Positions 46,595 through 61,824 are shown, counted from the first letter of the stretch. The stretch: DNA of 64,000 nucleotides from an uncultured Candidatus Saccharibacteria bacterium (GCA_964510945.1 CAZEED010000002.1:144924-208923), one strand, 5' to 3'. The notes: generated by a model from the letters alone, not told the origin. Made by a program: numbers and translations.

Positions 46595-46620
46595 TTTTAG
46601 CGTTAAGGTAGAATACTAAT

Positions 46621-47178
46621 ATGAGTAAAGTATTAAAAGACAAACAAAAAAGCCCAGAGAAACAGTTTGAAGATCAGTTTGATGATGAAGAGGTGTTATA
46701 TGTTTTTCGCAAACATCCGATTGTTATGCGTAAAGGTCTTATTTTTTCTATGCTAGCGATTCTGGCCGGAACTATCCCGTCACTGATAAAACCAGAAATG
46801 TCCTACTTTTTTTTGGGTCTTGCCGGAGGTTTTCTGCTCGGGTTTTTGATATTCATGCCTTATTGGATTTCGTGGTATTACAGTGTCTATATTGTTACAG
46901 ATCAAAGATTGATTCAGATATCACGAAAAGGTTTATTTAGTAAAACCGTAGTTGATATGAGCCTAAACCAGATCCAGTCGATGAATTATTCTGTCAGTGG
47001 ATTACAGGAAACACTGCTTAAGTTTGGTACAATGGTTATACAAACATATATAGGAGATCTAGTAATACACGACGTACATCATCCTGAACACGTACAGAAG
47101 ACTTTAGCCAAGATTTTAAGAGAGCAAGGTATATCGACTAAAAGTTTTGTTCAGGATAGCGAAGAAGAGGAATCATAG
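46621..47178 (+). CDS. Membrane bPH_2 (YdbS/YdbT-like) PH-domain protein
   Basis: VLYVFRKHPIV, then two TM helices, then YIVTDQRLIQISRKGLFSKTVVDMSLNQIQS. Confidence 0.65.
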   Translation: MSKVLKDKQKSPEKQFEDQFDDEEVLYVFRKHPIVMRKGLIFSMLAILAGTIPSLIKPEMSYFFLGLAGGFLLGFLIFMPYWISWYYSVYIVTDQRLIQISRKGLFSKTVVDMSLNQIQSMNYSVSGLQETLLKFGTMVIQTYIGDLVIHDVHHPEHVQKTLAKILREQGISTKSFVQDSEEEES

Positions 47179-47182
47179 AATA

Positions 47183-48247
47183 ATGAAAAAATATTTCAAA
47201 AAAATTAAGAATAAAACTAGTGAGTTCAAAGAAGCGAAGGCTCGTGAGAACGAACCGCCAAAAACAGTCCCAGTTATTTCAAACAAAACTGTCCCAGAGC
47301 ATCGAGACGAAGTACTATCGTCGGCCCGAAAGTTTATTTATCCACTCCAGCATTCTAAACATCGGATAGTAGTGATTACCATCGGAATATTACTATCGGC
47401 AGTTGTTATCTTTTTCTCGTATTGTACTTTGGCGTTGTATTCTTTACAATCAACTTCAACATTTATTTATAAGGTAACGCAGATATTTCCTTTTCCAATT
47501 GCTAGAGTTGGTAGGGATTTTGTCTCTTATGAGAACTATTTGTTTGAATTAAGACGTTATAAACATTACTACGATAGTCAGCAAAAAGTTGACTTCAATT
47601 CAGAGTCCGGTAGACAACAATTAGCGGAGTATCAGAAGAGGGCATTAGACAAAGTTATTGATTTTAGTTACGTAAAAGAACTCGCTAAACAAAACGATGT
47701 AAGTGTTACTGGTAGTGAAGTAGATGAACAAATTAAGCTATTAAAAGAACAAAATAGACTAGGGAATGGCGAACAAGTATTTGAGGATGTTTTAAAGGAT
47801 TATTTTGGCTGGTCAGTCGCAGAATTCAGACGATACCTAGAGCAAGAGATGTTGACTCAAAAAGTTGTAGCAACTCTAGATAAACAAACTCAGGCAAAAG
47901 CTAATAAAGCCTATTCAGAGTTAAAATCGGGAAAAAGCTTCGCCAAAGTAGCGAAAAAGTATTCAGACGATCTGTCGACAAAAAACAATGGTGGCGAAAT
48001 AGGCTTTACTATAAGTAGGCAAAGTAAAGATATAACACCTCAGGCTACCGATGTGCTTTTCCAGTTAAAGAAAGGGCAGTTTTCTAAAGTTATTAATACT
48101 GGTTATAGTTTAGAAATTTTTAAACTTGATAGCAAAAGTGGTGATAAAGTAAATGGTTCACATATTTTGTTCAAGTTTAAAGACATTAATCAGTATATTA
48201 ATGATCTAAAAGAACAGAAACCGGCCAAAAAATACGTAAATCAATAA
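47183..48247 (+). CDS. Membrane-anchored peptidyl-prolyl isomerase (parvulin/PrsA-SurA-like)
   Basis: The ATG at 47183 follows the upstream stop. One TM helix. Parvulin segment FAKVAKKYSDDLSTKNNGGEIGF...GYSLEIFKL. Confidence 0.8.
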   Translation: MKKYFKKIKNKTSEFKEAKARENEPPKTVPVISNKTVPEHRDEVLSSARKFIYPLQHSKHRIVVITIGILLSAVVIFFSYCTLALYSLQSTSTFIYKVTQIFPFPIARVGRDFVSYENYLFELRRYKHYYDSQQKVDFNSESGRQQLAEYQKRALDKVIDFSYVKELAKQNDVSVTGSEVDEQIKLLKEQNRLGNGEQVFEDVLKDYFGWSVAEFRRYLEQEMLTQKVVATLDKQTQAKANKAYSELKSGKSFAKVAKKYSDDLSTKNNGGEIGFTISRQSKDITPQATDVLFQLKKGQFSKVINTGYSLEIFKLDSKSGDKVNGSHILFKFKDINQYINDLKEQKPAKKYVNQ

Positions 48248-48252: not shown

Positions 48253-48327
48253 TGGTGCGGGTAGAGAGAATCGAACTCTCCTCTCGACCTTGGGAAGGTC
48301 GCATATTAACCACTATACGATACCCGC
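48253..48327 (-). tRNA. tRNA-Gly (anticodon CCC), CCA encoded
   Basis: Reverse complement: GCGGGTA-TC-GTAT-AGTGGTTA-ATAT-G-CGACC-TTCCCAA-GGTCG-AGAG-GAGAG-TTCGATT-CTCTC-TACCCGC-A-CCA. Confidence 0.9.
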
Positions 48328-48395
48328 GCGGACGTAATTAATTATACATCTACCTCTGTTTTATTCAATTATTTCTGATAAAATATATCAAATAT

Positions 48396-48471
48396 GCCAC
48401 CGTAGCTCAGTTGGTAGAGCAACACATTCGTAACGTGTAGGTCAGCAGTTCAATTCTGCTCGGTGGCTCCA
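48396..48471 (+). tRNA. tRNA-Thr (anticodon CGT), discriminator U, CCA encoded
   Basis: GCCACCG-TA-GCTC-AGTTGGTA-GAGC-A-ACACA-TTCGTAA-CGTGT-AGGTC-AGCAG-TTCAATT-CTGCT-CGGTGGC-T-CCA. There is one A-C mismatch at 31:39. Confidence 0.88.
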
Positions 48472-48533
48472 TGTTGCTGTTAACAGATAAAACTGCTATC
48501 ATTTCACTTGTTCGCTTTTTAGCTATTTCAGGT

Positions 48534-48710
48534 GCATCACACACGTGCATTTGAGCATAATAGCGTTGTTCTTGTCGAGGAAACGGAACAAGACGTACAA
48601 ATGGTACGGCGAAGTGAGTACCGCAGATAAAACAGCGGTAGGATGCCGAAAGTTTAACAGTGATGTTAGCTTGGCTAACATGCAGGTTAAACAGTGCACA
48701 TGTGTGATGC
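48534..48710 (+). ncRNA. Candidate structured RNA (~177 nt) abutting the 5' end of tRNA-Asp
   Basis: GCATCACACACGTGCA (48534-48549) pairs 15/16 with TGCACATGTGTGATGC (48695-48710). The closing helix encloses at least three hairpins, including GTTTAAC-agtg-ATGTTAGC-ttg-GCTAACAT-gcag-GTTAAAC. Confidence 0.4.
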
Positions 48711-48788
48711 GGGCCCGTGGTGTAGCTGGCCTAACACGCCTCCCTGTCACGGAGGAGATCGCCGGTTCGAATCCGGTCGGGCCCGCCA
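48711..48788 (+). tRNA. tRNA-Asp (anticodon GTC), CCA encoded
   Basis: GGGCCCG-TG-GTGT-AGCTGGCCTA-ACAC-G-CCTCC-CTGTCAC-GGAGG-AGATC-GCCGG-TTCGAAT-CCGGT-CGGGCCC-G-CCA. Confidence 0.93.
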
Positions 48789-48789
48789 T

Positions 48790-48822
48790 GAAAAGAGAGT
48801 CACCTTGAGTGGCTCTTTTTTC
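48790..48822 (+). terminator. Rho-independent terminator after tRNA-Asp
   Basis: AAAAGAGAGTCAC-cttga-GTGGCTCTTTT (with G-U pairs) followed by a TTTTTT run. Confidence 0.7.
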
Positions 48823-48879
48823 ATGCTGTGTCTCGATTGAATTCGAATTAGGCGATGTGGATTTGCCTTTGGCAAAGAC

Positions 48880-48966
48880 GCGAATCGTCGGTTCGGTCAT
48901 CAAGCCCGCGCACAGAAGCTTGCTTCGAGCATAGGTGTAGATGTGCGGAGAAGGCCAAGCCCGCCA
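48880..48966 (+). pseudogene. Two degenerate tRNA-Asp 3'-end fragments
   Basis: 48880-48912 (GCGAATCGTCGGTTCGGTCATCAAGCCCGCGCA) aligns to GAGATCGCCGGTTCGAATCCGGTCGGGCCCGCCA of tRNA-Asp. 48953-48966 is GGCCAAGCCCGCCA. Confidence 0.4.
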
Positions 48967-49014
48967 AAATTCTCTAGAATATATTTCGATTGAACGCTAT
49001 AATGGCTCTCAAAT

Positions 49015-49374
49015 ATGGAAATACCAAAAAAATACTTTCATGACCGCGTAATATTGTTTTTGATCAGTTTTAATACGTTTTTTGTACTTTTAACTTCTTT
49101 ACTAAGTTTGCTCCATATTGATAGCAATAGTTCGGATCTGTTTTTAGCTCAGTGTCGATATTGTAGCGAGGACTTTCCGCAACGAATTTATGGCTCTAGT
49201 GCGACATTGTTTTCAATGATTGCGTTTTCATTCATAGTTTTAATTTCTCATGTACTACTTAGCATGAGGATCTATGATGAAAAACGTCGATATGCTGTCA
49301 CAATTTTGGCTCTTGCCTCGCTGTTAATTATTTTTACACTCGTAGTCAGCAATTCTTTATCAATACAAAACTAG
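49015..49374 (+). CDS. Small integral membrane protein (3-4 TM helices)
   Basis: 119 aa, strongly hydrophobic, 4 nt upstream of the GT2 gene. Confidence 0.55.
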   Translation: MEIPKKYFHDRVILFLISFNTFFVLLTSLLSLLHIDSNSSDLFLAQCRYCSEDFPQRIYGSSATLFSMIAFSFIVLISHVLLSMRIYDEKRRYAVTILALASLLIIFTLVVSNSLSIQN

Positions 49375-49378
49375 ACTC

Positions 49379-50962
49379 ATGACAGATATAGAGATACCTC
49401 TGCAGTCCGAGAAAAAACTGCATTATAGGTTGTTTGAAATTTTGCCTGGGGCGTTAACTTGGACTATTCTGACGGCTCCTTTTTGGTTGAGTCTGATAAA
49501 CCCAACAATCACAGCACTAATTATTATCGCGTTTTTTCTGCTCTGGCTGGTTCGTGCGATTGGGTTAAATATTCGTGTTTTGCAGGGTTATCAAATGATG
49601 CAAAAGCAGTTAAAGCTGGATTGGGCAAAAATGCTCGATGATATTACTGATCCAAAAGAATCCTATAAAAGTGAGTTTCCGAAGTGGCATAATGATATCA
49701 AGAAACGATTAGCAAAAAACAAACCGATAATCGCCCCTGATGAAATTATCCACGCGGTATTTATAGCGGCCTATAACGAGGGTGTCGAAGTGTTGGAGCC
49801 CACGATAAAGGCCGTTTTAGCGTCAAATTTTGATTCTAAAAAGATGATTTTGGTAATGGCGTATGAGGGTAGAGATGGGGCTCAATCAAAAACAGCCGTA
49901 CAGACTATGGTTAAAAAATACGCAAATAGGTTTATGGAGGCTCTGGCATATGAACACCCTTTAACAGAGGGGGAAGTGCGTGGAAAGGGCGGTAATATAA
50001 CTTATGCGGGAAGGCAACTACAAAAATATCTAAAATCTAAACAAATTGATCCGCTGAAAGTTATGGTAACCACTCTGGATTCTGATAATCGACCGCATAA
50101 GAGTTATTTTTCTGCTCTTAGCTACGTTGTTGCAGCCACCCCTGATCCCGTTAGAGTTTCGTATCAGCCAATACCGATGTTTACTAACAATATCTGGGAT
50201 GTCCCTGCGCCAATGCGGGTTATTGCGACAGGTAACTCTTTTTGGAACATTGTATTGTCACTAAGACCTCATGTATTAAGAAATTTTGCTTCACATGCTC
50301 AGAGCATGAAGGCGTTGATTGATACTGATTTTTGGAGTACCAGAACTATCGTGGAAGACGGTCATCAATACTGGCGTTCGTATTTTAAGTTTGAGGGAAA
50401 ATACGAGGTTTATCCGCTGTATATTCCTATCTATCAGGACGCAGTACTCTCTAGTAATTACCGAAAAACCTTAAAAGCTCAATTCATACAGTTAAGAAGA
50501 TGGGCTTGGGGTGCATCGGATGTAGCTTATGTTGCCGATAAAGCATTTTTTACCAAAAACAAAATTTCAAAGACAGATAAAATCTTTAAGTTTTTAAGGT
50601 TGCTGGAGGGGCATGTTAGCTGGGCGACGGCTCCAATAATTTTAGCTTTTGCAGCTTTTGTACCACTGTTATTGAATCCCGATAACTATACGGCTAATCA
50701 ATTGCCATTAATCGCTAGTCGTATACAAACCGTAGCCTTGGTAGGCATATTTGTTACCTTCTTTTTGAGTATTAAAACTCTACCACCAAAGCCCAAGCGT
50801 TACAAAGCCCACAAGTCAATTTTTATGGTGTTACAGTGGGTGCTTTTACCGGTAACCACAATAATGTTTAATGCGATGGCAGCGTTGGTGTCACAGACTA
50901 GACTGATGCTTGGTCGATATTTAGACAACTTTGATGTAACCGACAAAGTAGTCAAGAAGTAA
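49379..50962 (+). CDS. Processive family-2 glycosyltransferase (cellulose/chitin-synthase-like membrane synthase)
   Basis: D, D, D, QxxRW signature in AAYNEG, TLDSDN, VEDG and FIQLRRWAWG. TM helices flank the catalytic domain. Confidence 0.8.
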   Translation: MTDIEIPLQSEKKLHYRLFEILPGALTWTILTAPFWLSLINPTITALIIIAFFLLWLVRAIGLNIRVLQGYQMMQKQLKLDWAKMLDDITDPKESYKSEFPKWHNDIKKRLAKNKPIIAPDEIIHAVFIAAYNEGVEVLEPTIKAVLASNFDSKKMILVMAYEGRDGAQSKTAVQTMVKKYANRFMEALAYEHPLTEGEVRGKGGNITYAGRQLQKYLKSKQIDPLKVMVTTLDSDNRPHKSYFSALSYVVAATPDPVRVSYQPIPMFTNNIWDVPAPMRVIATGNSFWNIVLSLRPHVLRNFASHAQSMKALIDTDFWSTRTIVEDGHQYWRSYFKFEGKYEVYPLYIPIYQDAVLSSNYRKTLKAQFIQLRRWAWGASDVAYVADKAFFTKNKISKTDKIFKFLRLLEGHVSWATAPIILAFAAFVPLLLNPDNYTANQLPLIASRIQTVALVGIFVTFFLSIKTLPPKPKRYKAHKSIFMVLQWVLLPVTTIMFNAMAALVSQTRLMLGRYLDNFDVTDKVVKK

Positions 50963-50973
50963 ATAGTGGTGAA

Positions 50974-51375
50974 TTAGCAATAATACGCCTCATAATGGGA
51001 TGCCGAGGCTTTATCGAAATTGGATAATGCCTCAGTTGCTAGTTTTTTAATTGAATTAAGTTCAACGACTGCATTGGAATTTGTCGCAAACATCTTAGTT
51101 ACGATAGTTGTTGTCAGGCTTTCTGCGTCCTTCTCAGGGGTTTTGCGGTGTTTACATGATTCATATATGCTAGAGAATAATTTCTCACGCGAGAAGGGCT
51201 CTAATTGGCTATTAGGCCGTTTGATCATCAACACTTTTGATAAATCAATAGATTCACTGGTAGTGAACAGGGCACCACAGTTTGGACACCTTCGTCTCCG
51301 CCAAACATTATTTTGCTTTTTTTGAAACCGAGAGTTAATTACGCCTAGTTTTTCATGGCAATATATGCAAACCAT
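50974..51375 (-). CDS. nrdR: Transcriptional repressor NrdR
   Basis: Zn ribbon MVCIYCHEKLGVINSR...RRRRCPNCGALFTTSE, then an ATP-cone. AAGGAG RBS. Confidence 0.9.
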   Translation of the reverse strand: MVCIYCHEKLGVINSRFQKKQNNVWRRRRCPNCGALFTTSESIDLSKVLMIKRPNSQLEPFSREKLFSSIYESCKHRKTPEKDAESLTTTIVTKMFATNSNAVVELNSIKKLATEALSNFDKASASHYEAYYC

Positions 51376-51395
51376 GTTAATAACTCCTTAGAACC

Positions 51396-51430
51396 AACAA
51401 TAATGCAGAATTTATTTCTGAATTATTGTT
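51396..51430. promoter_or_regulatory. 35-bp near-perfect palindrome just upstream of the nrdR RBS
   Basis: AACAATAAT-g-CAGAA-tttat-TTCTG-a-ATTATTGTT. Confidence 0.4.
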
Positions 51431-51842
51431 TACATTTAGGGGAGAAAAGCCCCAGTAATTTCCAGATAGCAAATTACTGGGCGCGATAGGAGGGGAATGT
51501 CCCCTCCTATAGAACGAGAGTAACGAGTGATAAACCATGACTACATATTGTCATATGGCAATTAGAATTACCAGTGGAAAAGATTTTGGAATCTGCGGAT
51601 AACTATTTCCGATTTTTGTATGAGCTTAAGATAGGGCATATTGCTACTTTTGTTTAGTCAAAAGTAGCCAAAACCAGCGGGGTGTCCGTTTTTCTTGATA
51701 TGACTTCTGGTTAATGGCTACAACAGGCTGCGGAACTCGCCAATTATAGATTGTCTCAAACAGTCCTCGCCTGGTAGTTGTAGCATTAACGAAGTCATTC
51801 AGGTAAAGCCGGATGCCCAGATCAGCATGGAATTATCTTTTC

Positions 51843-52057
51843 AAATGAAAAACCCCTTCATTTCTCACCTTGAAGGGGTTTTACTCCACGTTTGCTTCTT
51901 AAGTTGCCTTAAGATGCAGCCGCTGTTTTTCGAGTTCGCCTAACCCTGTTGTAACGCTTGGGTTGGGCAGAAAATACTAGCTCTTCGTAAAACAGCTTAA
52001 AATCTTCTAACGAAGATCGTCGCTTTATGGTACTCACACAGAGTGCCTCGTTTAACG
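51843..52057 (-). ncRNA. Candidate sRNA (~215 nt) with its own promoter and terminator
   Basis: On the minus strand, TTGACA (52092-52087), a 17-nt spacer, then TACTAT (52069-52064). The 3' end is the hairpin AAAACCCCTTCA-9nt-TGAAGGGGTTTT (51881-51849) plus TTTTTCATTT. No ORF. Internal GNRA hairpin TCTTAAG-GCAA-CTTAAGA. Confidence 0.4.
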
Positions 52058-52126
52058 TGTCCCATAGTATCAATGTGGGTGATTACTGTCAAGAGCCAGT
52101 GGGTATAATGCTACAATATATAATCA

Positions 52127-53227
52127 ATGCAACCCACGAAATACAACAGCGTAATAAGCATAAAAGATATCAAAAATGGTGTTAGGCAAGGTATCCTCAC
52201 CACAAGATCAGGGGTGGCCAATACTCCGTTATTTATGCCGGTCGGCACTAGAGGGGCGGTGAAATCGTTAACACCAGATCAGGTCAAAACAACAGGCGCA
52301 CAAATAATCCTAGGTAATACTTACCATTTGCATATGCAACCGGGCGAAAAGACCGTCGCACAATTAGGTGGGCTACATACGTTTATGAATTGGAACGGCC
52401 CAATATTGACTGATTCGGGTGGTTTTCAGGTATTCTCGCTTGCCCATATTAGTACGATCACCGAAGAAGGGGTTAAATTTAAGGATCCGACTAATGGTGA
52501 TTTGATTGAGCTAACTCCTGAGAAAGCTATCCAGATTCAGCTTGATCTGGGGTCTGATATTATTATGGCCTTTGATGATGTGGCTGGCCTGAACGGCGTA
52601 TCAAAACAGCGAGGTAAAGAAGCTTACGAACGAACGCATAGATGGCTAGAGCGGTCTCTAAGAGCCTTTAGGGATGGCACAAAAGATTTAGTGATAGGTG
52701 ACCGACCTTTATTCTTTGGCATCGCTCAAGGCGGACTTAATAAAAAACTACGACAAAAAAGTATAGAAACAGTTCAGTCGTTAGACGTAGACGGTCTAGC
52801 TATCGGCGGTTTATCGGTCGGTGAAGCTAGGCCTGATATGTATAAAATGCTAAAGTTCATGGCTCCGATTTATGACGAGAATAAACCGCATTATCTTATG
52901 GGCGTAGGCGATCCTAAAGACATGCGAGTCGCAATAGAGAACGGCATTGACATGTTTGATTGTGTCTTGCCGACTCGGAACGCCCGTCATGGCTCCGCAT
53001 GGGTAACAGGCGATAAGCTGATTCATCTTACTAATGCAAAATACACAAAAGACACAGCTGTTATTGATAAAAACTGTGATTGCTATACTTGTAAAGAAGG
53101 TTTTTCGCGGGGTTTTTTGCGCCATCAGTTTAAAGTAGGCGAATCACTGTCTGGATCATTGGTGTCGATCCATAACATTCGTTACCTCGAGCGGTTGTGT
53201 GAGGAGTATCGAAGTGCTAGTAATTGA
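52127..53227 (+). CDS. tgt: Queuine tRNA-ribosyltransferase
   Basis: TPLFMPVGT, ILTDSGGFQVFSL, MAFDD and LMGVGDP, plus the zinc site CDCYTC...H. Confidence 0.95.
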   Translation: MQPTKYNSVISIKDIKNGVRQGILTTRSGVANTPLFMPVGTRGAVKSLTPDQVKTTGAQIILGNTYHLHMQPGEKTVAQLGGLHTFMNWNGPILTDSGGFQVFSLAHISTITEEGVKFKDPTNGDLIELTPEKAIQIQLDLGSDIIMAFDDVAGLNGVSKQRGKEAYERTHRWLERSLRAFRDGTKDLVIGDRPLFFGIAQGGLNKKLRQKSIETVQSLDVDGLAIGGLSVGEARPDMYKMLKFMAPIYDENKPHYLMGVGDPKDMRVAIENGIDMFDCVLPTRNARHGSAWVTGDKLIHLTNAKYTKDTAVIDKNCDCYTCKEGFSRGFLRHQFKVGESLSGSLVSIHNIRYLERLCEEYRSASN

Positions 53228-53261
53228 CAAATATGCACAAGTATAGGATAATTGTAGTCTT

Positions 53262-53966
53262 ATGAAATTGAGTGAGACTCTAGATCGAGATGCGGCGTCA
53301 CAAGTTTTTACAGGTTGGCTGAAAAGTGAACATGCACGTGTACATACCCTAACCCTTAAAGATCCGAGTATAATGAGCGATCTAAATGCTATGCGCAGTG
53401 CTACGGCTTCTGAATATGATAGTTATGAGAACATCCCGGCCCGTAAAACAGAGCAGCACCTTGTACGGGCCCGTCTACGTTTGGAATCTCTAGAAGATGA
53501 TTATGATCTTGAAATTGCAGGCCGTGGTCTCAGTGATATCTTAAAGTTGGTTGCTGGACAGCAGGTTAAACGAGCACTTGCCATGTCGCGCACTCAAGCT
53601 GAATTTTCATCATTTGCCACTACTATGTATCTGACCACTCCTATCAGTGTGCACAGTGCCTGTGTTATGGACGTAGCTGACCCAACTGAATCCATCACTC
53701 CGGCCCTGGATTTACTAGATTTCAAAGTTGAAGGGTCGCTTCGGGCAATCAACCAATTGTCTCGGGAGGGTAGCGATTGGGGTGAATTGAATTCACCAAT
53801 GACTCAAGCTGCCTGGCTTGGCGAAGTTGCCTGTATTGAGGCTGCCTTTAGCGCCATTGAGTATGTAGCAGCCCGTACCGGAAGTTATGAGGCGGTACCA
53901 CTTCGTCCACCAGCCAAAGATGATCAAGATATTGAGCCTATTTTTCCGTTTCAGGCAGCGGGATAA
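53262..53966 (+). CDS. Hypothetical protein (orphan)
   Basis: 234-aa ORF. Its GC looks slightly higher by eye than neighbouring genes. No recognisable motif. Confidence 0.55.
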   Translation: MKLSETLDRDAASQVFTGWLKSEHARVHTLTLKDPSIMSDLNAMRSATASEYDSYENIPARKTEQHLVRARLRLESLEDDYDLEIAGRGLSDILKLVAGQQVKRALAMSRTQAEFSSFATTMYLTTPISVHSACVMDVADPTESITPALDLLDFKVEGSLRAINQLSREGSDWGELNSPMTQAAWLGEVACIEAAFSAIEYVAARTGSYEAVPLRPPAKDDQDIEPIFPFQAAG

Positions 53967-53968
53967 GA

Positions 53969-54079
53969 TGGTGGGCGGTACAGGATTCGAATTAATTGAT
54001 CCGCTCGAGAGCTAGGGAGCATCTCGCTATAAATATGTATAACCCTAGACAGCTCCCAGCTTTTTTCGCCTCTCGGTTC
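53969..54079 (-). repeat. tRNA-3'-tailed conserved element, copy 2 (~111 nt)
   Basis: It aligns with 44045-44152. It ends (minus strand) in TTCGAATCCTGT-ACCGCCC-A-CCA, a tRNA-like 3' terminus that does not match the adjacent tRNA-Val acceptor. Confidence 0.7.
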
Positions 54080-54094
54080 GAATATGCACAGACC

Positions 54095-54125
54095 AAAATA
54101 AATACCCCATCTGTTGATGAGGCAT
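54095..54125 (-). terminator. Hairpin plus U tract after tRNA-Val
   Basis: Minus strand: ATGCCTCATC-aaca-GATGGGGTAT (10 bp including two G-U pairs) followed by TTATTTT. Confidence 0.55.
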
Positions 54126-54131
54126 ATATTT

Positions 54132-54208
54132 TGGTGGGCTCTAGAGGACTTGAACCTCTGACCTCCTCAACGTCAATGAGGCGCTCTAGCCAACTGAGCT
54201 AAGAGCCC
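54132..54208 (-). tRNA. tRNA-Val (anticodon GAC), CCA encoded
   Basis: Reverse complement: GGGCTCT-TA-GCTC-AGTTGGCTA-GAGC-G-CCTCA-TTGACGT-TGAGG-AGGTC-AGAGG-TTCAAGT-CCTCT-AGAGCCC-A-CCA. Confidence 0.92.
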
Positions 54209-54360
54209 GTGAATAACAGATAACAGAATAGCAAAAACTAATGCAAAAAAATAGTCCACAGAACTTTGTCCAAATAACAACACTAAAGTACTAGTATTAT
54301 GATACTAGCCTATGTATACTTTGTAGCACTGGTGAAGTTTTAGGGGGTGGTTGCATCGCG

Positions 54361-54400
54361 AGCGTCGTGTTTAATTGCGAGAAAACACGACGCTTTTTGT
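54361..54400 (+). terminator. Orphan rho-independent terminator with no upstream + strand CDS
   Basis: AGCGTCGTGTTT-aattgcgaga-AAACACGACGCT (a perfect 12-bp stem) followed by TTTTTG. Confidence 0.65.
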
Positions 54401-54427
54401 TTGGTTCTGTAAATGCAAAACATTAAC

Positions 54428-54635
54428 TGATATAATCATCAGTAGGTGTTGATACGGAGTCACTACCCGTGGAGCCTCGTCGGTGCGGTAGCAGAAGTAC
54501 GATAACTAACGCTACAAGAGTTAAAGTCGAGGTGGAAACGTCCATCAAGGACCCGAGACACGAAACTAGTTAAATATATTTGCGAGAATATTGAACGGTT
54601 TCGTGTTTTTTACTTATATAAAATCAGGAGTCAAG
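54428..54635 (+). promoter_or_regulatory. thrS promoter plus ~190-nt attenuator leader (T-box-like, Thr)
   Basis: Extended -10 TGaTATAAT at 54428-54436. A GAGGTGGAAACGTCC segment (T-box-like GGUGG-N, where UGGA complements the UCCA end of the U73 tRNA-Thr). A possible ACU-A specifier in GATAACTAACGC. Terminator ACACGAAAC...GTTTCGTGT plus T6 (54558-54612) directly before the RBS. Confidence 0.5.
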
Positions 54636-56513
54636 ATGAGCAAACCAGAAAATAATCAAATACAGGTGATGAGACACAGCATGGCGCATGTGATGGCAAC
54701 AGCGTTACAACACCTCTGGCCAGAGGTAAAGTTAGGTGTAGGACCAGCTGTAGAGAATGGCTTTTATTATGATATTGACCTCGGTGAAACAAAACTGACC
54801 GAAGACGACCTTCCTAAAATTGAGGCCGAAATGCAAAAAGTAATTAAGGCTGATCAAAAGTTTGAAAAGCTACACCTAACAATTGATGAAGCGCTGTCTT
54901 GGGCAAAAGAAATGGATCAGCCTTATAAGCACGAACTACTCAATGATCTAAAGCGTGCTGGTACTACTGTAGCGAAGGATTTGAACAAGGATGAGCTAGG
55001 GACGATAACAGATAGTGATAGCAAGGTTGATAAAGTATCGTTTTACAAAAACGGACCATTTACTGATCTTTGTCGAGGACCACATGTTGATAGTACCGGC
55101 AAAGTGGGGGCATTTAAGCTTATGCGCGTGTCAGGAGCATATTGGCGTGGTAAAGAAGACAATCCCCAGATGCAAAGAATCTACGGAGTCGCATTTAATA
55201 CAGAGAAAGAACTTCGCCAACATTCGGCAATGCTAGAGGAAGCCAAAAAACGAGATCACCGTAAACTCGGCCAAGAGCTAGACCTGTTTGTATTTTCTGA
55301 CATGGTTGGCTCGGGGTTGCCAATATTTACCCCTAGAGGGACAGTATTAAGAGAAAAACTAGTAGAATTTTCTAACTCCTTAAGAGAGGCGTATGGTTTT
55401 GAAAAAGTTTGGAGTCCGCATATTACTAAGAAGGATCTCTATGAAGCCTCTGGTCACTGGTCAAAGTTTGGTGACGAGCTATTTCTGGTGAAAAGTCAGG
55501 AAACATCTGATGAGTTAGTAATGAAGCCTATGAATTGTCCTCATCATACTCGCATTTACACTAGTCAGCCACGGAGTTATCGTGACTTGCCTTTACGTTA
55601 CCTAGAAACTACGACAGTATATCGTGACGAAAAGTCTGGCGAGCTAGGTGGGCTTAATCGTGTACGAGCAATTACTCAAGACGATAGCCACGTATTTTGT
55701 AGGCAAGATCAGATAGAAAAGGAAATTGACAACCTTCTGACCTCTGCAGCATCCTTATACGACGTGATGGGCATGAAATTACGGGTTCGTTTATCCTATC
55801 GTGACGACAGTGGATCGTATCTGGGTTCAATGGAACTATGGCAGAGTGCACAGCAACAGTTACAGAATGCTGTTAAGGCAAATAACCTAGAATACTACGA
55901 AGAGACAGGAGAGGCGGCTTTTTATGGTCCAAAGATCGATTTTATGGCCACAGATGCAATTGGACGTGAGCACCAAGTAGCCACTGTGCAATTAGACTTT
56001 GTGCAGCCCGATAGGTTTGAGCTTGAGTATGTAGCGGAAGATGGCGGTAAGCAACAGCCAGTTATGATTCACTGTGCGCTATTGGGATCTATCGAGCGGT
56101 TCTTGAGTGTTTACATTGAGCATACTGCCGGTAAGTTCCCGGTGTGGTTGGCGCCAGAACAGATTAGGATTGTTACAGTTAATCAAGAAGAGCCAACTAC
56201 GAATTTTGCCGAGAAAATTCGTGATCAAGCCAAGGAGTTAGGCCTTAGAGTTTATCTGGACAACGATAACGAATCAGTCGGAAAGAAAATCCGAGAAGCA
56301 GAAATGCAAAAAATCCCATATACGTTAGTGATAGGCGAAAAAGAGATTAGTAGCGGAGAGGTTATGCCTAGAGTGCGTCAGGATATTGAAGTCCAAGAAG
56401 ATAGTAAGCCGATTGCTGTTGAAGAATTCTTGAAAACAGTCGTAAACGAAGCAAAATCTCGGGTAACGCACACCTCTATCCATGCTTATGAAGCCCATAA
56501 AAAATCAGTTTAA
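54636..56513 (+). CDS. thrS: Threonyl-tRNA synthetase (no N-terminal TGS domain)
   Basis: The ATG at 54636 follows AGGAG. The protein starts at the editing-domain motif RHSMAHVMA. Class II motifs are present (FRDE-like YRDEKSGELGGLNRVRAITQDDSHVF), followed by an anticodon-binding domain. Confidence 0.95.
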   Translation: MSKPENNQIQVMRHSMAHVMATALQHLWPEVKLGVGPAVENGFYYDIDLGETKLTEDDLPKIEAEMQKVIKADQKFEKLHLTIDEALSWAKEMDQPYKHELLNDLKRAGTTVAKDLNKDELGTITDSDSKVDKVSFYKNGPFTDLCRGPHVDSTGKVGAFKLMRVSGAYWRGKEDNPQMQRIYGVAFNTEKELRQHSAMLEEAKKRDHRKLGQELDLFVFSDMVGSGLPIFTPRGTVLREKLVEFSNSLREAYGFEKVWSPHITKKDLYEASGHWSKFGDELFLVKSQETSDELVMKPMNCPHHTRIYTSQPRSYRDLPLRYLETTTVYRDEKSGELGGLNRVRAITQDDSHVFCRQDQIEKEIDNLLTSAASLYDVMGMKLRVRLSYRDDSGSYLGSMELWQSAQQQLQNAVKANNLEYYEETGEAAFYGPKIDFMATDAIGREHQVATVQLDFVQPDRFELEYVAEDGGKQQPVMIHCALLGSIERFLSVYIEHTAGKFPVWLAPEQIRIVTVNQEEPTTNFAEKIRDQAKELGLRVYLDNDNESVGKKIREAEMQKIPYTLVIGEKEISSGEVMPRVRQDIEVQEDSKPIAVEEFLKTVVNEAKSRVTHTSIHAYEAHKKSV

Positions 56514-56805
56514 AAAAGATGTTTTAGAGTTAGTAAGGGTAATTCCTAAAGGTAGGGTTATGACTTACGGGCAGATTGCGGCACTTTGTGGCGAACCAAA
56601 TGCAGCCCGAGCAGTAGGGACTATAGCGCACTATGGCCCATCAGAGCTCCCGTGGCAACGTGTGGTGAATAAATCAGGTGGTTTGGCATCAGCTTATACC
56701 TATGGAGGTAGAGGTGGTCAAAAGGCTCAATTAGAAGCTGATGGGGTAATTGTCGGCAAGGATAACAAAATCGATATCGAGAAATACATATGGTGGCCAC
56801 AGTGA
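56482..56805 (+). CDS. Alkyltransferase-like (ATL) / MGMT-family DNA-binding protein lacking the acceptor Cys
   Basis: VMTYGQIAALCGEPNAARAVG and PWQRVVN, where active MGMT has PCHRV. Confidence 0.8.
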   Translation: MLMKPIKNQFKKDVLELVRVIPKGRVMTYGQIAALCGEPNAARAVGTIAHYGPSELPWQRVVNKSGGLASAYTYGGRGGQKAQLEADGVIVGKDNKIDIEKYIWWPQ

Positions 56806-57566
56806 AGCCTCTAATAGTAATTGTTGGTCCTACAGCTAGCGGAAAAAGCGATTTAGCTATGATGTTAGCCAAGAGATTTAATGGCGAGATTATTTGTGCT
56901 GATAGTCAGACTATTTATCGGGGTATGGATATTGGCACAGCCAAGCCTACAAAAACAGACCAAGCCTTAATACCACACCACCTTTTAGATATACGTAATC
57001 CTGATGAATCTTACAGTGTGGCTCAGTTTCAGCGTGACGCTCAAGAGGCAATTGCTGATATTAACACCAGAGGTAAACTGCCAATTATGGTCGGAGGTAG
57101 TGGCTTGTATATAGATTCTGTCATCTATAACTATTCTTTTATTTCGGATGGTCAGCGCGATGATGTTAATCCGCGACATTTAGCTAAAGATGTGGGGCTT
57201 AAAGATAAGGAGCTACGGGACGATACATTAATTATTGGAATTCAGCGCAACCCAGAGGAGTTAGAAGCTCGGATTGTGGAGCGAATCGATAGGATGGTGG
57301 AGGCTGGACTGATTGATGAAGTAAAGAACCTTGTTGCTAAGTACGGCCGTGATGCCGTGGGGCTAAGCAATATTCGATATCAAATCTTTGCAGAATACCT
57401 TGCTGGATTGATAAGTCTCGATGAGGCAATGCAAAAATTTGCACGAAACGATATGTTACTCAGCAAAAAACAAAAGACTTGGTTTAAACGTAACAAAAGT
57501 ATTCACTGGATGAATAACAGAGAGGATGCCGTAGCAATTACAACAACGTTTTTGAACAATTATTAA
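56790..57566 (+). CDS. miaA: tRNA dimethylallyltransferase
   Basis: IVIVGPTASGKSDLAMMLA and ICADSQTIYRGMDIGTAKPT. Confidence 0.9.
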   Translation: MVATVKPLIVIVGPTASGKSDLAMMLAKRFNGEIICADSQTIYRGMDIGTAKPTKTDQALIPHHLLDIRNPDESYSVAQFQRDAQEAIADINTRGKLPIMVGGSGLYIDSVIYNYSFISDGQRDDVNPRHLAKDVGLKDKELRDDTLIIGIQRNPEELEARIVERIDRMVEAGLIDEVKNLVAKYGRDAVGLSNIRYQIFAEYLAGLISLDEAMQKFARNDMLLSKKQKTWFKRNKSIHWMNNREDAVAITTTFLNNY

Positions 57567-57590
57567 ATTGTAAGCTGTTATAATGTATAC

Positions 57591-58187
57591 ATGATTGAAC
57601 AATTGTTTGGGAGCAAGACGAGGGTAAAGTTGCTACAACTTTTTTACGCAAATCCAAATAGGGCATTTTACGTTCGCGAAATTACCCGAAAAATTGATGA
57701 GCAAATTAACTCTGTTAGGCGTGAGCTAGCTAATCTACTCAGTATTGGGATAATTTCGTCAGAGGATAATGCTCATAAGCTATACTATGAAGTCGATCAG
57801 AATTACGATTTTTATAAACCGCTTTCTGAGATTTTCGGAGGAAAGAAAAAAGCTGTTGCTGTAAAAACAGTATCAGCTAGTGGGGATGGCGATAACGACA
57901 AGCTTAAATCAATTGGTAATATAGAGATTGCATTTTTAACCGGTCAGTTTACTAGGGATGAGACTGCTAGCATCGATTTACTGATCGTTGGGGATGTTAA
58001 TCATACAAAATTAGAGAAGTATATTTCTGATCTCGAGAAAACTGAGGGTAAAGAGATACGATATTCGGCAATGACTAAAAAAGACTTTGATTATCGACAA
58101 CAGGTTAAAGATAGATTTATAACGAACGTCCTGCAGAATAAGCGACAAGTATTAATAGATAAACACAAAGTATTAAACGAACTCTAA
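57591..58187 (+). CDS. Winged-helix (ArsR-like) DNA-binding protein with an uncharacterised C-terminal domain
   Basis: FGSKTRVKLLQLFYANPNRAFYVREITRKIDEQINSVRRELANLLSIGII. Confidence 0.55.
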   Translation: MIEQLFGSKTRVKLLQLFYANPNRAFYVREITRKIDEQINSVRRELANLLSIGIISSEDNAHKLYYEVDQNYDFYKPLSEIFGGKKKAVAVKTVSASGDGDNDKLKSIGNIEIAFLTGQFTRDETASIDLLIVGDVNHTKLEKYISDLEKTEGKEIRYSAMTKKDFDYRQQVKDRFITNVLQNKRQVLIDKHKVLNEL

Positions 58188-58201
58188 GAAAGGGATAATA
58201 G

Positions 58202-58837
58202 ATGGAATTACAGTTTTTTGGTGCAAATTGTGTGCGAATCTCAACAAAGAAAGCTAATGTGGTGGTTGACGATAATTTGTCTAGTCTAGGGTTAAAGACG
58301 GCATGCAAACCTGGAGATATCGCATTGTTTACTCATGAGAGTACTGCTGATGCGCAGAAACTAAAAGACCCTAAATTAGTGATTCAGATTCCGGGGGAGT
58401 ACGAAGTTTCGGCTGTATCTGTTAGAGCGATTTCAGTCAGGTCTCATATGGACGAAGAGGGTCAGCAGAGTGCAGTCATGTACAAGATTATTAATAGCGG
58501 GATTAACGTTGCTGTTGTTGGTCATATACACCCTGATTTAACCGAAGAACAATTAGAATCTTTAGGCATGGTTGATGTTCTGTTTGTGCCTGTCGGTGGC
58601 AACGGATATACGCTAGACGCAATCGGTGCGCTAAAAATTATCAAAAAAATTGAGCCAAAAATTATTATTCCGACTCACTACGCTGACAAGGCGATTAAAT
58701 ATGAGGTCCCACAGGCGGATCTTGACGAAGTTATGAAGAATGTGACGTTTGAAATCAAAGAAAAACTACCAAAACTAAAACTAAAAAATACAGATTTGCC
58801 CCTGACACCTGAGTTTATTGTTCTAGAGCGTCAATAA
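58202..58837 (+). CDS. MBL-fold metal-dependent hydrolase (UPF0173-like)
   Basis: Beta-lactamase-fold pattern MELQFFGANCVRIS...VVVDD, VVGHIHPD and IIIPTHY. Confidence 0.65.
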   Translation: MELQFFGANCVRISTKKANVVVDDNLSSLGLKTACKPGDIALFTHESTADAQKLKDPKLVIQIPGEYEVSAVSVRAISVRSHMDEEGQQSAVMYKIINSGINVAVVGHIHPDLTEEQLESLGMVDVLFVPVGGNGYTLDAIGALKIIKKIEPKIIIPTHYADKAIKYEVPQADLDEVMKNVTFEIKEKLPKLKLKNTDLPLTPEFIVLERQ

Positions 58838-58841
58838 ATTA

Positions 58842-59078
58842 TTATTTACTTGTAACTGGGTTTATTTCTTGAGCAGGGTTTTTTGGGTCAACAATTAGGC
58901 CTTTTCGCTTTAGCGTACGAATAGCTTGGGTGCTGATTTTCATTTTTACTTTATGGCCATCAATAACAATAGTTTTCTTTTGAAGATTTGGTTTCCATAC
59001 TTTTTTTGTATGGCGTTGAGAAAAGCTGACATTACTGCCATATTGCTTGCCTTTGCCGGTTAATTCGCATTTTTGCAT
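58842..59078 (-). CDS. rpmB: 50S ribosomal protein L28
   Basis: MQKCELTGKGKQYGSNVSFSQRHTKKVWKPNLQKK. Confidence 0.93.
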   Translation of the reverse strand: MQKCELTGKGKQYGSNVSFSQRHTKKVWKPNLQKKTIVIDGHKVKMKISTQAIRTLKRKGLIVDPKNPAQEINPVTSK

Positions 59079-59201
59079 AACAGAGGAGTATTTTAGCGTC
59101 TAAAGTGGTAGAAGTCAACCAAGAAAGATTAATATTACAGACAGGTATCCTAAAAATTGAAATCTTAAAGTTTTGTAGATGCGCTGGTATACTAAAGCGT
59201 A

Positions 59202-59831
59202 ATGTTCGCAAACCTAACAGGATTAAACTTTGGAATATTCTTTGTCTCGCTACTTTTGGCTGTCTCTATACACGAGGCCATGCATGGTTATGCTGCGCAC
59301 TGGTTGGGCGACGATACAGCGCATCAGGCAGGCCGGCTGACACTCAACCCTCTAAAACACCTTGATTTGGTCACATCTATAATTATGCCTATGTTGTTAT
59401 GGCTACTGGGTTTACCGCCTTTTTTTATAGCAAAGCCAGTACCTTTTAACCCATGGAAAGTCAGGTACGGTGAATACGGTGCTGCAATGATAGGCCTAGC
59501 TGGTCCGTTAACGAATATCGTATTAGCGACTGTCGCTTCTTTGTTGCTGCATATTCTTGGGATCGCAGTCGGCACGCCGATTTATAACGCATTTGTCATT
59601 TTTATGGCTGTGAATGTTGCTATATTCGTGTTTAACATGATTCCTTTTCCGCCACTCGATGGATCTAGGTTACTGTATGCATTCGCACCAGAACCTCTGC
59701 AAAAACTAATGATGCAAATAGAATCGTTAGGGATGAACGCTATATTCATTTTTATGATGATAAGCTTTGTGTTTTTGTCGCCATTTATAATTCGTGCTAA
59801 TGAACTCATATTAAATCTACTGCTTTATTAG
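59202..59831 (+). CDS. Site-2 protease family (M50) membrane metalloprotease
   Basis: HEAMHG (HExxH within a TM helix) and FNMIPFPPLDGSRL (the NxxPxxxLDG motif). Confidence 0.8.
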   Translation: MFANLTGLNFGIFFVSLLLAVSIHEAMHGYAAHWLGDDTAHQAGRLTLNPLKHLDLVTSIIMPMLLWLLGLPPFFIAKPVPFNPWKVRYGEYGAAMIGLAGPLTNIVLATVASLLLHILGIAVGTPIYNAFVIFMAVNVAIFVFNMIPFPPLDGSRLLYAFAPEPLQKLMMQIESLGMNAIFIFMMISFVFLSPFIIRANELILNLLLY

Positions 59832-59848
59832 AATGATATAATTAGTCT

Positions 59849-60150
59849 GCTGGCTAAGAACCTATCCCAACAGTACGTTTTCGGTTATAGCAATTAATAA
59901 TTCGTTATGAACGGGTATACCGCTTCGCAACATATTCTTTAATATGTTTTGTCGCCTGACATCCGTTCATGTCGATTCTTATTTGTATAACAGTTCGAAA
60001 AGTACTGTTGGGGTAGGTTCAATTGCCAAACAATGATTATCTAACAACATATATTCGGGAGCTCAATATCAGATTTTGCCTTTGGCGGATGAATGCGAGC
60101 ACCCACCTGGGTAAAACCAGATTAATCATTGGTAAGTTAGCCAGCTTTTG
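59849..60150 (+). ncRNA. Candidate ~300-nt structured RNA containing a 163-nt 6S-like long hairpin
   Basis: Extended -10 TGaTATAAT at 59834-59842. GCTGGCTAA (59849-59857) pairs with TTAGCCAGC (60137-60145), followed by TTTTGATTTTG. Hairpin A arms are 59858-59883 and 59996-60020 (25 bp, one G-U, one bulge). The apical stem is AACATATT-cttt-AATATGTT. Hairpin B stem is CAATGATTA with TAATCATTG. Confidence 0.4.
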
Positions 60151-60224
60151 ATTTTGTGAATGATATTAGTTATTGATCACAAAACAAAAATAACATTGTG
60201 TAATCTCGGTCATGTTAGTATTAA

Positions 60225-60881
60225 GTGATGCCAAAAGAAGATAAAAAAGAAATACATAAAAGTTATGAGTTTAAGGATTTTGCGGAGTCTATGCGTTTTG
60301 TTCGTCAGGTAGCTGATCTGGCGGAAGTTGCTAATCATCATCCGAGGATACAGATCGATTACAACAAAGTGGAGCTATGGTTTACAACTCATGATAAGGG
60401 AAAAGTAACTGAAAAAGACGAGAAATTAGCCGAGCAAGTTGACGCTTTAATTAACGGTCAACCGTCTGTTGGCCAGTTGCCCTCTGAGCTAAAGTTTTAT
60501 GGCGACGGGGGCTCTCGCGGTAACCCAGGACCAGCCGCTGCTGGGTTTGTTTTGCTAGATATGAATGATCATTTACTAGAGAATGGTGGCGAGTTTATGG
60601 GTGTTACCACTAACAATCAGGCAGAGTATCATTCTTTAGAGATGGGGCTTGAGCGTGCTTTGGAGGCTGGAGTTAAGAAGATCCATGTATATATGGATAG
60701 TCAGCTAGCTATAAGGCAAATAAGTGGCCAATACAAGGTCAGGAGCCTCGAGCTATTGCCCCGGTATAATAACGTTAAGAGTTTGTTAGCTAAATTCGAT
60801 GAAGCTACCTGCACACATGTGCCACGAGAGCTCAACAAGTTGGCTGACGCAGAAGTAAACCGTATTCTAGATTCGCTATAG
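60225..60881 (+). CDS. Fusion protein: pterin-4a-carbinolamine dehydratase (PCD/DCoH)-like domain plus RNase HI-like domain
   Basis: N-terminal YEFKDFAESMRFVRQVADLAEVANHHPRIQIDYNKVELWFTTHD. The C-terminal DEDD pattern is FYGDGGSRGNPGPAA, NNQAEY, VYMDSQL and NKLADAEVN. Confidence 0.75.
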   Translation: MMPKEDKKEIHKSYEFKDFAESMRFVRQVADLAEVANHHPRIQIDYNKVELWFTTHDKGKVTEKDEKLAEQVDALINGQPSVGQLPSELKFYGDGGSRGNPGPAAAGFVLLDMNDHLLENGGEFMGVTTNNQAEYHSLEMGLERALEAGVKKIHVYMDSQLAIRQISGQYKVRSLELLPRYNNVKSLLAKFDEATCTHVPRELNKLADAEVNRILDSL

Positions 60882-60898
60882 TAGTTGTATACTGTTAG

Positions 60899-61230
60899 AG
60901 CCAGATTATTGACTAATCGCTCGCTTTAACGTGGGAGGAAAGTCCGGGCAACGTAGAGAAGGGTAGTTGTTAACGACAACCGGGGGCAACCCTAGGGAAA
61001 GTGCCACAGAAACAAAACGTCCTTTTATAGGTCACGGTGAAAAGAGTGGGGTAAGAGCCCACAGTTTGCGATGGTGACATCGTAAAGAGGTAAACCCTAC
61101 CTGTTGCAAGGAGTATATTCACAAAATGGTTTCTCGCCAGAATATACGATGATCCGCTTGATTCTATCGGCAACGATAGAACTAGATAGATGATTAGTCA
61201 CGACTAAACCCGGCTTATAGATAATCTGGC
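60899..61230 (+). ncRNA. rnpB: RNase P RNA (bacterial type A)
   Basis: P1 pairs GCCAGATTAT with ATAATCTGGC. P4 is GGAGGAAAGTCCGGGC with AAACCCGGCTTATAG. AGTGCCACAGAAA is also present. The antisense ORF 60970-61173 is spurious. Confidence 0.9.
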
Positions 61231-61231
61231 A

Positions 61232-61265
61232 TTAAATAATCCTCAGTAAATTGAGGATTATTTAA
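61232..61265. terminator. Bidirectional terminator between rnpB and rplT
   Basis: TTAAATAATCCTCA-gtaaat-TGAGGATTATTTAA (a perfect 14-bp stem) with A/T-rich flanks on both sides. Confidence 0.8.
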
Positions 61266-61285
61266 TGCCAAGTTTTAAGTAATGT

Positions 61286-61627
61286 TTATTTTACGGCGTT
61301 TACTACCGCTTCGAAGGCTTTTGGTTCGTTAACGGCTAGCTCAGCTAGTATTTTACGATCAATTTTAACGTTGGCTTTTTTCATTGCTGCAATTAATTTG
61401 CTGTAAGTTGTCCCGTGTTCTCGGGCAGCTGCATTGATTCTGATGTTCCAAAGAGCTCTAAAACTACGTTTTTTATTGCGTCTGTCTCTGTAACTGTACT
61501 GTAATGCTTTGATCGTTGCTTGGCGACCACGTCTGACGCTAACTCTATGAGCGTGGGACATTCCCTTGGTGCTTTTTCTTATCTTGTCATGTCGCTTTTT
61601 GGCTGCGACGCCTCTTTTTACTCTCAT
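61286..61627 (-). CDS. rplT: 50S ribosomal protein L20
   Basis: MRVKRGVAAKKRHDKIRKSTKGMSHAHRVSVRRGRQATIKALQYSYRDRRNKKR. Confidence 0.95.
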   Translation of the reverse strand: MRVKRGVAAKKRHDKIRKSTKGMSHAHRVSVRRGRQATIKALQYSYRDRRNKKRSFRALWNIRINAAAREHGTTYSKLIAAMKKANVKIDRKILAELAVNEPKAFEAVVNAVK

Positions 61628-61822: not shown

Positions 61823-61824
61823 TG

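Follow-up and report, generated by a model that had tools for sequence, protein, structure and literature searches.

Putative miniature integration modules with partial tRNA copies behind tRNA genes of Saccharibacteria

Site-specific integration into a tRNA gene leaves a characteristic architecture, in which the inserted DNA has the intact gene on one side and a direct repeat of the gene's 3' part on the other. Saccharibacteria have reduced genomes with few recognized mobile elements. Integrated elements and their remnants can be recognized by partial tRNAs, which flank the former and mark the latter (10.1101/2020.12.28.424599), and cis-mobilizable elements (CIMEs) have kept both attachment (att) sites, attL and attR, while losing the integration genes (PMC5704250). 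Here, we analyzed a stretch of 64,000 nucleotides (the window, to which all unprefixed coordinates refer) from an uncultured “Candidatus Saccharibacteria” bacterium (GCA_964510945.1, CAZEED010000002.1:144924-208923), in which an element of ca. 110 nt was found twice, each time behind a tRNA gene and each time ending in a stretch of tRNA sequence. The feature is most readily interpreted as a gene-less insertion module at tRNA ends, unusually miniature for its kind, whose partial tRNA copy is of the att type.

Both copies lie on the minus strand. The copy-2 locus opens with an intact tRNA-Val(GAC) (54208-54132; ARAGORN, and 69.4 bits with the Rfam tRNA model) of the allele GGGCTCT.../...AGAGCCCACCA. 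It is followed by the hairpin ATGCCTCATC-AACA-GATGGGGTAT and the T-run TTATTTTGG (54125-54102), described as terminator-like in an initial annotation of this DNA and also called by our terminator scan, and then by a stretch of ca. 115 nt (54083-53969). This stretch consists of a conserved core running from ATTCGAACCGAGAGGCGAAAA to GAGCGGATCAATTAA (54083-53992) and a 23-nt tail, TTCGAATCCTGTACCGCCCACCA (53991-53969), that comprises the T-loop, the T-stem 3' strand, the acceptor 3' strand, and ACCA. Copy 1 (44158-44045) stands behind an intact tRNA-Arg(CCT) (44286-44210; ARAGORN and Rfam) and shows the same parts: a long hairpin, GTAGTCGGTTGGTGAC-ATC-GTCACCTATCGACTAC, followed by a T-rich run (44209-44175), the core (44158-44068), and a 23-nt tail (44067-44045). 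The two copies are 84.7% identical over 98 nt, with unrelated sequences on their flanks; the copy-1 core is also similar to further copies described below. Two blocks, of 35 nt (TAGCTCTCGAGCGGATCAATNAATTCGAATCCTGT) and 26 nt (GTTATACATATTTNTAGCGAGATGCT), have exactly two occurrences each in the window and none in 100 shuffles, and a core-only profile recovered the copy-2 core with nhmmer at E = 2.5e-27. The repeated element of ca. 110 nt that the initial annotation had reported was there with every feature ascribed to it. Each copy is the distal part of a module of ca. 165 bp without genes, in the order hairpin, core, and partial tRNA. No conserved open reading frame was found in these 165 bp, and we discarded one small candidate whose ATG is absent in a related genome (L001) and whose reading frame is not the same in the two copies.

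The “tRNA-like tail” is, in both copies, a literal piece of a tRNA gene. The copy-1 tail is an exact direct repeat of the last 23 nt of the tRNA-Arg(CCT) gene located 165 nt upstream (two exact matches in the window, none expected). The copy-2 tail occurs once in the window. It shares 18 of 23 positions with the resident tRNA-Val, the only contiguous common block being the terminal GCCCACCA, and is identical at all 23 positions to the 3' end of the other tRNA-Val(GAC) allele, GGGCGGT...ACCGCCCACCA (GGGCGGTTAGCTCATTTGGC...GACAGGTTCGAATCCTGTACCGCCCACCA). This allele was found in four related Saccharibacteria (L034, L036, L037, and L038; the loci fetched for comparison are designated by L numbers), at the syntenic locus TGT/tRNA-Val/ThrRS, and has the T-arm ACAGG-TTCGAAT-CCTGT in common with tRNA-Arg(CCT). 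The tRNA-Val(GAC) of the window is identical in the other fetched strains of the species, differs in allele from the copy-2 tail, and is not chimeric. The copy-2 tail accordingly represents the cognate isoacceptor in a foreign allele rather than an independently evolved mimic. The initial annotation had proposed a non-cognate acceptor and a tail of the element's own; the mismatch with the resident tRNA-Val stands, but the tail derives exactly from a tRNA-Val(GAC) of another allele, which fits an att arm carried by the element and a crossover within the shared terminal GCCCACCA.

The same tails could be what is left of a decayed tandem duplicate of each tRNA gene, with the core as the remnant of the second copy and TAGCTC..GAGCG as its D-arm. 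The core motif TAGCTC-TC-GAGCG does resemble tRNA positions 8 to 26 with the D-loop deleted, and the tail is tRNA sequence. We nevertheless consider this very improbable: the Arg- and Val-linked cores are 85% identical and their tRNAs are not, so the core was not derived from each tRNA separately; the match of 23/23 ends abruptly, with no identity beyond, which is not the pattern of neutral decay; and the core escapes detection by ARAGORN and by the Rfam tRNA model.

The explanation that we favor, with somewhat better than even confidence, is a non-autonomous, att-bounded, CIME-like integration module located at the 3' ends of tRNA genes. Its order would be the tRNA 3' end, a hairpin that now closes the tRNA gene, a conserved core of ca. 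90 nt, and a partial copy of the tRNA 3' end. The hairpin would be the end of the tRNA gene supplied by the element, the core would be the element-side arm next to the recombination site, and the tail would be att-site sequence. In copy 1, the tRNA-like segment of the element would have been identical to its target, Arg-CCT. In copy 2, the element would have brought the 3' end of a GGGCGGT-type tRNA-Val and recombined with the resident GGGCTCT-type gene inside the shared terminal GCCCACCA; such a crossover would leave the resident tRNA-Val intact and 15 foreign nucleotides beside the core, as seen. We infer a tyrosine-type recombinase as the maker, together with the position of the crossover and any mobility in the present day. 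The modules now carry no recombinase and would be miniature non-autonomous derivatives that persist or are exchanged among related Saccharibacteria.

Presence and absence of the modules varied among relatives, and the copies found so far all lie behind tRNA genes. In L001, a Saccharibacteria metagenome-assembled genome (MAG), the same tRNA-Arg is followed by a different hairpin, an element 90% identical to copy 1, and the Arg tail. The matches of copy 1 in L004 and in L020, a divergent strain with seven changes in the element, were both 94% identical (all three values from BLAST matches that include the tail). The core was also present in L106, with a hairpin of the L001 type; that is, the copy-1 hairpin has an unrelated one in its place in L001 and L106, and none in L108 and L109. 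These last two represent the empty tRNA-Arg site: an identical tRNA-Arg with a gene directly after it and no hairpin, core, or tail. Their S8 peptidase has 90% amino acid identity to that of the window. The empty tRNA-Val site was found in L030, L032, and L108, where a window-type tRNA-Val abuts or overlaps the next gene without any module; the copy-2-type hairpin was absent in these three module-free relatives. L108 provides in addition a version with cargo, in the order tRNA-Val, a gene of 225 amino acids, a decayed core with a decayed Val tail (TTCAAATCTATACCACCCACCA), and the rest of the chromosome. The cargo protein is 51% identical to a protein of 234 amino acids in the window, and the tail corresponds to the GGGCGGT type with three G-to-A changes and one deletion. 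The similarity of the L108 core to copy 2, computed on the core only, reached z = 3.7, a value as high being obtained in 1 of 2,000 shuffles.

Some arrangements were less straightforward. In L004, the upstream gene is a tRNA-Gln, whereas the tail is that of Arg and the flank is the CYTH flank seen at copy 1; it is either a recombinant or an assembly chimera formed via the identical stretch (from ca. 50 nt before the tail, through the tail, to the flank). In both cases it points to a further copy behind tRNA-Gln, and we used it as evidence for that alone. In the Logan contig L013 (3400-7803), the hairpin, core, and tail of copy 1 are preceded by ...AATTCGTAACTCGCAAGTGTACCA and genes for cation efflux, a copper-binding protein, and DsbA, and not by tRNA-Arg. 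The arrangement reflects either the insertion of an island at the end of tRNA-Arg or a misassembly. Two other Logan contigs, L011 and L018, both end at the same base within the copy-1 core, which is expected if other copies in those samples have the same 3' half of the core; the repeat interrupts assemblies.

The layout was not restricted to tRNA-Arg and tRNA-Val. We surveyed 31 distinct contexts of a tRNA plus its downstream sequence from the fetched Saccharibacteria loci, using the last 14 nt of each tRNA as a query and allowing up to three mismatches. A tail repeat ended 156 to 184 nt downstream in 11 of them, and none appeared in the upstream and reverse-complement controls, where the best match always had at least four mismatches. 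Every module starts with a hairpin. The identity blocks, which all extend to CCA, start at one of three places: within the T-loop (23 nt), near its end (18 nt), or within the T-stem 3' strand (14 to 16 nt). The cores belong to three unrelated families: that of Arg/Val, that of tRNA-Asp, and that of the tRNA-Val of L037, the last with an 18-nt repeat. In the window, the tRNA-Asp(GTC) module (48789-48966, plus strand, ca. 178 bp) has a core unrelated to that of Arg/Val. It includes a terminator hairpin and another long hairpin, as well as two degenerate pieces of tRNA sequence, namely an inner copy of the tRNA-Asp 3' end and the tail, GGCCAAGCCCGCCA. The family is also found in L010, L020, L030, and L032, and the second, inner, degenerate tRNA-Asp 3' end that its modules hold (GGCCGGTTCGGTCATCAAGCCCGCGCA) would be the expected outcome of serial events at a single site.

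Exchange between lineages was apparent at this same locus. The Asp module of L010, together with its hairpin, has a nearly identical counterpart in the distant MAG L030. The window strain belongs to the same species as L010, but its Asp module has a different hairpin and 5' half, which indicates that modules, or parts of them, move between lineages. Along one MAG contig compared with the window, positions 42187-48230, to one side of the tRNA cluster, matched L001 at ca. 76% nucleotide identity and 48253-61908, to the other side, matched L030 at 84 to 95%, except for 78% across tRNA-Asp and its module. Such mosaic identity suggests recombination tracts between lineages. Between tRNA-Thr and tRNA-Asp, the window also carries ca. 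190 to 215 nt (48496-48705, plus strand) that are absent from the same-species strain L010. This insertion is rich in hairpins (e.g., GGTAC-GGCGAAGTGA-GTACC and GTTAGC-TTG-GCTAAC) and has no match in Rfam; with the Val module of L037 it gave only two short collinear matches (E = 0.018), a hint of possible remote homology.

Insertions that regenerate a tRNA were found on the 5' side as well, and they bear on a different origin, by which the modules would be scars from homing driven by a nuclease, from gene conversion, or from allele replacement. Incoming DNA bearing a tRNA would then replace part of the resident gene and leave its end behind. In L001 (2325-2622, minus strand), L010 (10850-11151, minus strand), and L014, a gene for a GIY-YIG nuclease of 79 amino acids lies between the promoter flank of tRNA-Arg and the tRNA-Arg itself. 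It is preceded by a copy of nucleotides 1 to 22 of tRNA-Arg, split by a hairpin of 31 to 32 nt, that mirrors the 3' tail, and the cassette looks like a 5'-side insertion regenerating the tRNA-Arg gene. L010 also has 35 nt from the 5' part of a window-type tRNA-Gly(CCC) (15270-15304, minus strand), ending in the anticodon loop. A complete tRNA-Gly(CCC) of a different allele follows 24 nt downstream, and the fragment is the footprint of a tRNA allele replacement within one species. In L004 (909-970, minus strand), a duplicate of nucleotides 1 to 13 of tRNA-Gln(TTG) lies upstream of the gene, with a 35-nt spacer containing the hairpin TTCGCC-AGCC-GGCGAA. These 5'-side cases indicate that tRNA-regenerating insertions occur on both sides of tRNA genes in the clade. 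The nuclease or gene conversion route is a live rival. The tRNA alleles (Gly and Val) and the Asp-module alleles are moreover distributed against the apparent relatedness of the genomes, and no integrase was found. We still regard this origin as rather unlikely for the modules. The GIY-YIG cassette and the core occur independently, the cassette being absent from the window strain, L020, L106, and L108, the first three of which have the core without the nuclease. The GIY-YIG protein is a bare catalytic domain with no recognizable DNA-binding domain, the sharp boundary of the 14 to 23 nt of identity at the tRNA 3' end is a classic integrase signature, and the tRNA-Val of copy 2 is not chimeric.

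Several observations weigh against the integration module. No integrase or other recombinase was found inside or beside either copy, nor was the same core found beside a recombinase in scans of genomes, metagenomes, and viral sequences or by BLAST against phages and plasmids; the scans required exact 17- to 24-mers, so that diverged relatives would escape. A unit of 165 bp is very small for an excisable circle, and the uniform size of 156 to 184 bp and the common 5' boundary are not expected from random internal deletions. The right-hand junctions of occupied and empty sites are not cleanly comparable because the downstream genes differ, and that of copy 2 does not match the empty site of L032 and L108. 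Finally, the core is 88% identical across saturated synonymous divergence, more conserved than a dead relic should be, and its predicted hairpins pair in 94.5% of cells of the alignment, with three pairs doubly changed. The initial annotation is supported in part. Of its two explanations, our evidence favors the first, the att-proximal arm of tRNA-targeting elements now reduced to miniature remnants, by the exact partial tRNA tails, the empty sites, the cargo of L108, and the recurrence of the layout with unrelated cores at other tRNAs.

Other candidates for a recombinase or a parent element were considered and dropped. The sole recombinase nearby (41882-42796) is outside the repeats, scores as XerC/XerD-like, and stays beside NDK in a pilus-gene neighborhood in all relatives. 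As for a dif/Xer site, only a TGTATA-like center is present and neither arm matches, in comparison with the dif sites of E. coli and B. subtilis. A phage origin found nothing relevant in its favor in five viral-contig scans, three with core patterns and two with the exact 23-nt tails: nhmmer on 67 loci from two of the core-pattern scans returned seed-level matches only, and all matches to the exact Arg tail were phage sequences unrelated to the element, including the tRNA-Arg(TCT) gene of a phage. BLAST for a phage or plasmid origin gave no match. Apart from these candidates, a large serine recombinase lies beside tRNA-Asp in L038 (2214-6958), a more distant relative, with ThsB-TIR, SLATT-domain, and PGDYG-domain genes further on; the region looks like a defense islet at a tRNA cluster.

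The degree of conservation was evaluated against the neighboring genes in the comparison of the window with L001. The S8 peptidase and NDK had 72% and 57% protein identity, respectively, and the four-fold degenerate sites of the S8 peptidase stood at 68/232 (29%), the random level expected at saturation. Over the same distance, the hairpin region was unalignable (65%), while the core was 88% and the tail 100% identical. Conservation of the core to this extent requires selection or recent exchange, and the mosaic divergence (76% nucleotide identity around copy 1, 84 to 95% around copy 2) implies that recent exchange accounts for part of it. Among the six Arg-tailed copies, variable columns amounted to 17 of 68 in the 5' part, 2 of 23 in the junction block beside the tail, and 0 of 23 in the tail (P of ca. 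0.005 for zero at the rate of the core). Such a gradient toward the tail fits a recombination site with an adjacent binding arm; it would also fit an RNA with an important 3' end.

An RNA of that kind would be a structured small RNA of ca. 110 nt, transcribed by read-through from the tRNA or from an unrecognized promoter, with a single-stranded 3' end that copies the T-loop, the acceptor, and CCA. As a decoy or competitor, it could engage enzymes, toxins, or recombinases with specificity for tRNA 3' ends. The core is more conserved than the neighboring coding DNA, and the tail and junction block are nearly invariant. We examined the fold in eight distinct sequences and 23 pairs, with RNAalifold and a hand-built nested structure composed of a closing stem (GGAUUCGRA/UUCGAAUCC), CC-GNNA-GG, a small hairpin, and CGAGA(U)GC-loop-GCUCUCG. 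Besides the high proportion of paired cells and the three doubly changed pairs, there are several G-U states that can be accommodated on the minus strand but not on the plus strand. The small hairpin with preserved pairing reported at the outset (CAGTC-GGG-GACTG in copy 1, AGCT-GGG-AGCT in copy 2) was confirmed as two adjacent double changes. A hairpin with a T-rich run separates tRNA and element in both copies, and only that of copy 2 passes the terminator scan, so read-through at copy 1 is conceivable.

Other results make a small RNA unlikely in our view. The three doubly changed pairs reduce to about two events, the small hairpin in the copy-2 lineage and one G-C to A-U change in L020, which templated mutation in DNA palindromes could yield. 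The third hairpin is broken in L001 and L106, the closing stem is the palindromic T-loop motif itself, and the folds of the single sequences were unremarkable (z-scores of −0.6 and −1.4). No promoter-like site was detected by scanning within or before either copy on either strand, and the 3' end is defined by no terminator or structure. The lack of partners for the copy-2 tail was as initially described: there is no GGGCGGT on the element strand and no ACAGG 5' T-stem strand beside the loop. A partner RCCCCGG is likewise absent, nothing pairs in cis with the 3' strands of the acceptor and T-stem, and no covariation of the 5' part accompanies the switch of the tail from Arg to Val. The copy-2 tail matches no tRNA seen in the species, and the L108 copy is decaying. 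Rfam 15 has no family for either copy, in the whole window at gathering thresholds or in both loci at E ≤ 10 (only tRNAs and chance matches were returned), in agreement with the earlier failure to recognize a known RNA. The second explanation then offered, a new small-RNA family mimicking a tRNA 3' half, retains a modest likelihood but lacks support, on account of the missing promoter, the hairpin between tRNA and element, the missing acceptor and T-stem partners, and the small number of covariation events.

Known RNA types fared no better. We rejected a tmRNA, a two-piece tmRNA, and a split or permuted tRNA, with no 5' acceptor partner upstream or downstream, no G3:U70, and no call by ARAGORN. 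On the plus strand, the small hairpin and a T-run read as a weak terminator, which led us to consider a plus-strand small RNA or a 3' untranslated region terminator for converging genes; the scan, however, calls no terminator there, the two converging genes are unrelated, and L001 has no converging gene. Elsewhere in the window, 60901-61233 (plus strand) encodes a bacterial class A RNase P RNA (251 bits).

It is also conceivable, albeit decidedly unlikely, that the modules are not scars at all but RNAs of ca. 100 nt, or actively exchanged cassettes of ca. 165 bp, that are kept behind tRNA genes of Saccharibacteria. In such a case the tail, a literal copy of the T-loop, acceptor strand, and CCA, would act as a decoy or spare 3' end against agents attacking tRNA genes or tRNA 3' ends, e.g., integrases, nucleases such as that of the GIY-YIG cassette 5' of tRNA-Arg, or toxins. 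Should the integration module be correct instead, Saccharibacteria would carry, at several tRNA genes, a family of extremely small att-bounded modules without genes that vary among strains and are common to distant lineages. The tRNA 3' ends would then be main sites of gene flux, because variable genes sit right behind the modules, which would also account for breaks in assemblies and for chimeric contigs there. Annotations should label the repeats of ca. 110 nt neither as tRNA-like RNAs nor as pseudo-tRNAs. If the small RNA were real, it would represent a new class linked to tRNAs; we know of almost no small RNAs in this phylum.

Among the systems to which the locus can be compared, small RNAs from 3' external transcribed spacers (3'ETS), such as 3'ETS-leuZ of E. 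coli, end at the operon terminator and carry no tRNA fragment. Our element resembles 3'ETS-leuZ in lying directly downstream of a tRNA gene on the same strand, and differs in being separated from the tRNA by the hairpin with its T-rich run and in carrying a tRNA fragment. With tmRNA, viral tRNA-like structures, mascRNA, and YrlA it has in common the T-loop sequence and an NCCA 3' end; unlike them, it has no acceptor stem or T-stem, which makes a tRNA-like fold impossible, and its tail is a literal gene fragment. Miniature inverted-repeat transposable elements (MITEs) are likewise small, gene-less, and repeated, and the module has 9-bp inverted ends (GGATTCGRA and TTCGAATCC). However, these ends are the palindromic T-loop motif, no target-site duplication flanks them, and the copies were seen only behind tRNA genes, for which reasons an origin from a MITE or insertion sequence was rejected.

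The closest counterparts are products of integration at tRNA genes. Williams, writing in Nucleic Acids Res in 2002, reportedly distinguished sublocation classes of tRNA integration sites (anticodon loop, T-loop, and 3' end). The identity blocks of our modules are similar to these classes, starting from the T-loop to the T-stem 3' strand and running to CCA, with the difference that the position of the crossover is conjectural here and there is no integrase to place in a subfamily. To our knowledge, ca. 165 bp is far below the size of any CIME. Unlike CIMEs, the modules have a uniform size in three unrelated core families, a core conserved across saturated synonymous sites, no identified parent element or recombinase, and, in copy 2, a tRNA segment from a foreign allele. 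As in CIMEs (PMC5704250) and the partial tRNAs of tycheposon islands (10.1101/2020.12.28.424599), the insert lies between an intact tRNA and an exact repeat of that tRNA's 3' part, and it restores and closes the tRNA gene. Integration and transfer genes are likewise missing between the repeats while both att-type sites are kept, and the locus has in common with such remnants the empty sites, the nested or decayed partial tRNAs, and a version containing cargo in one relative.

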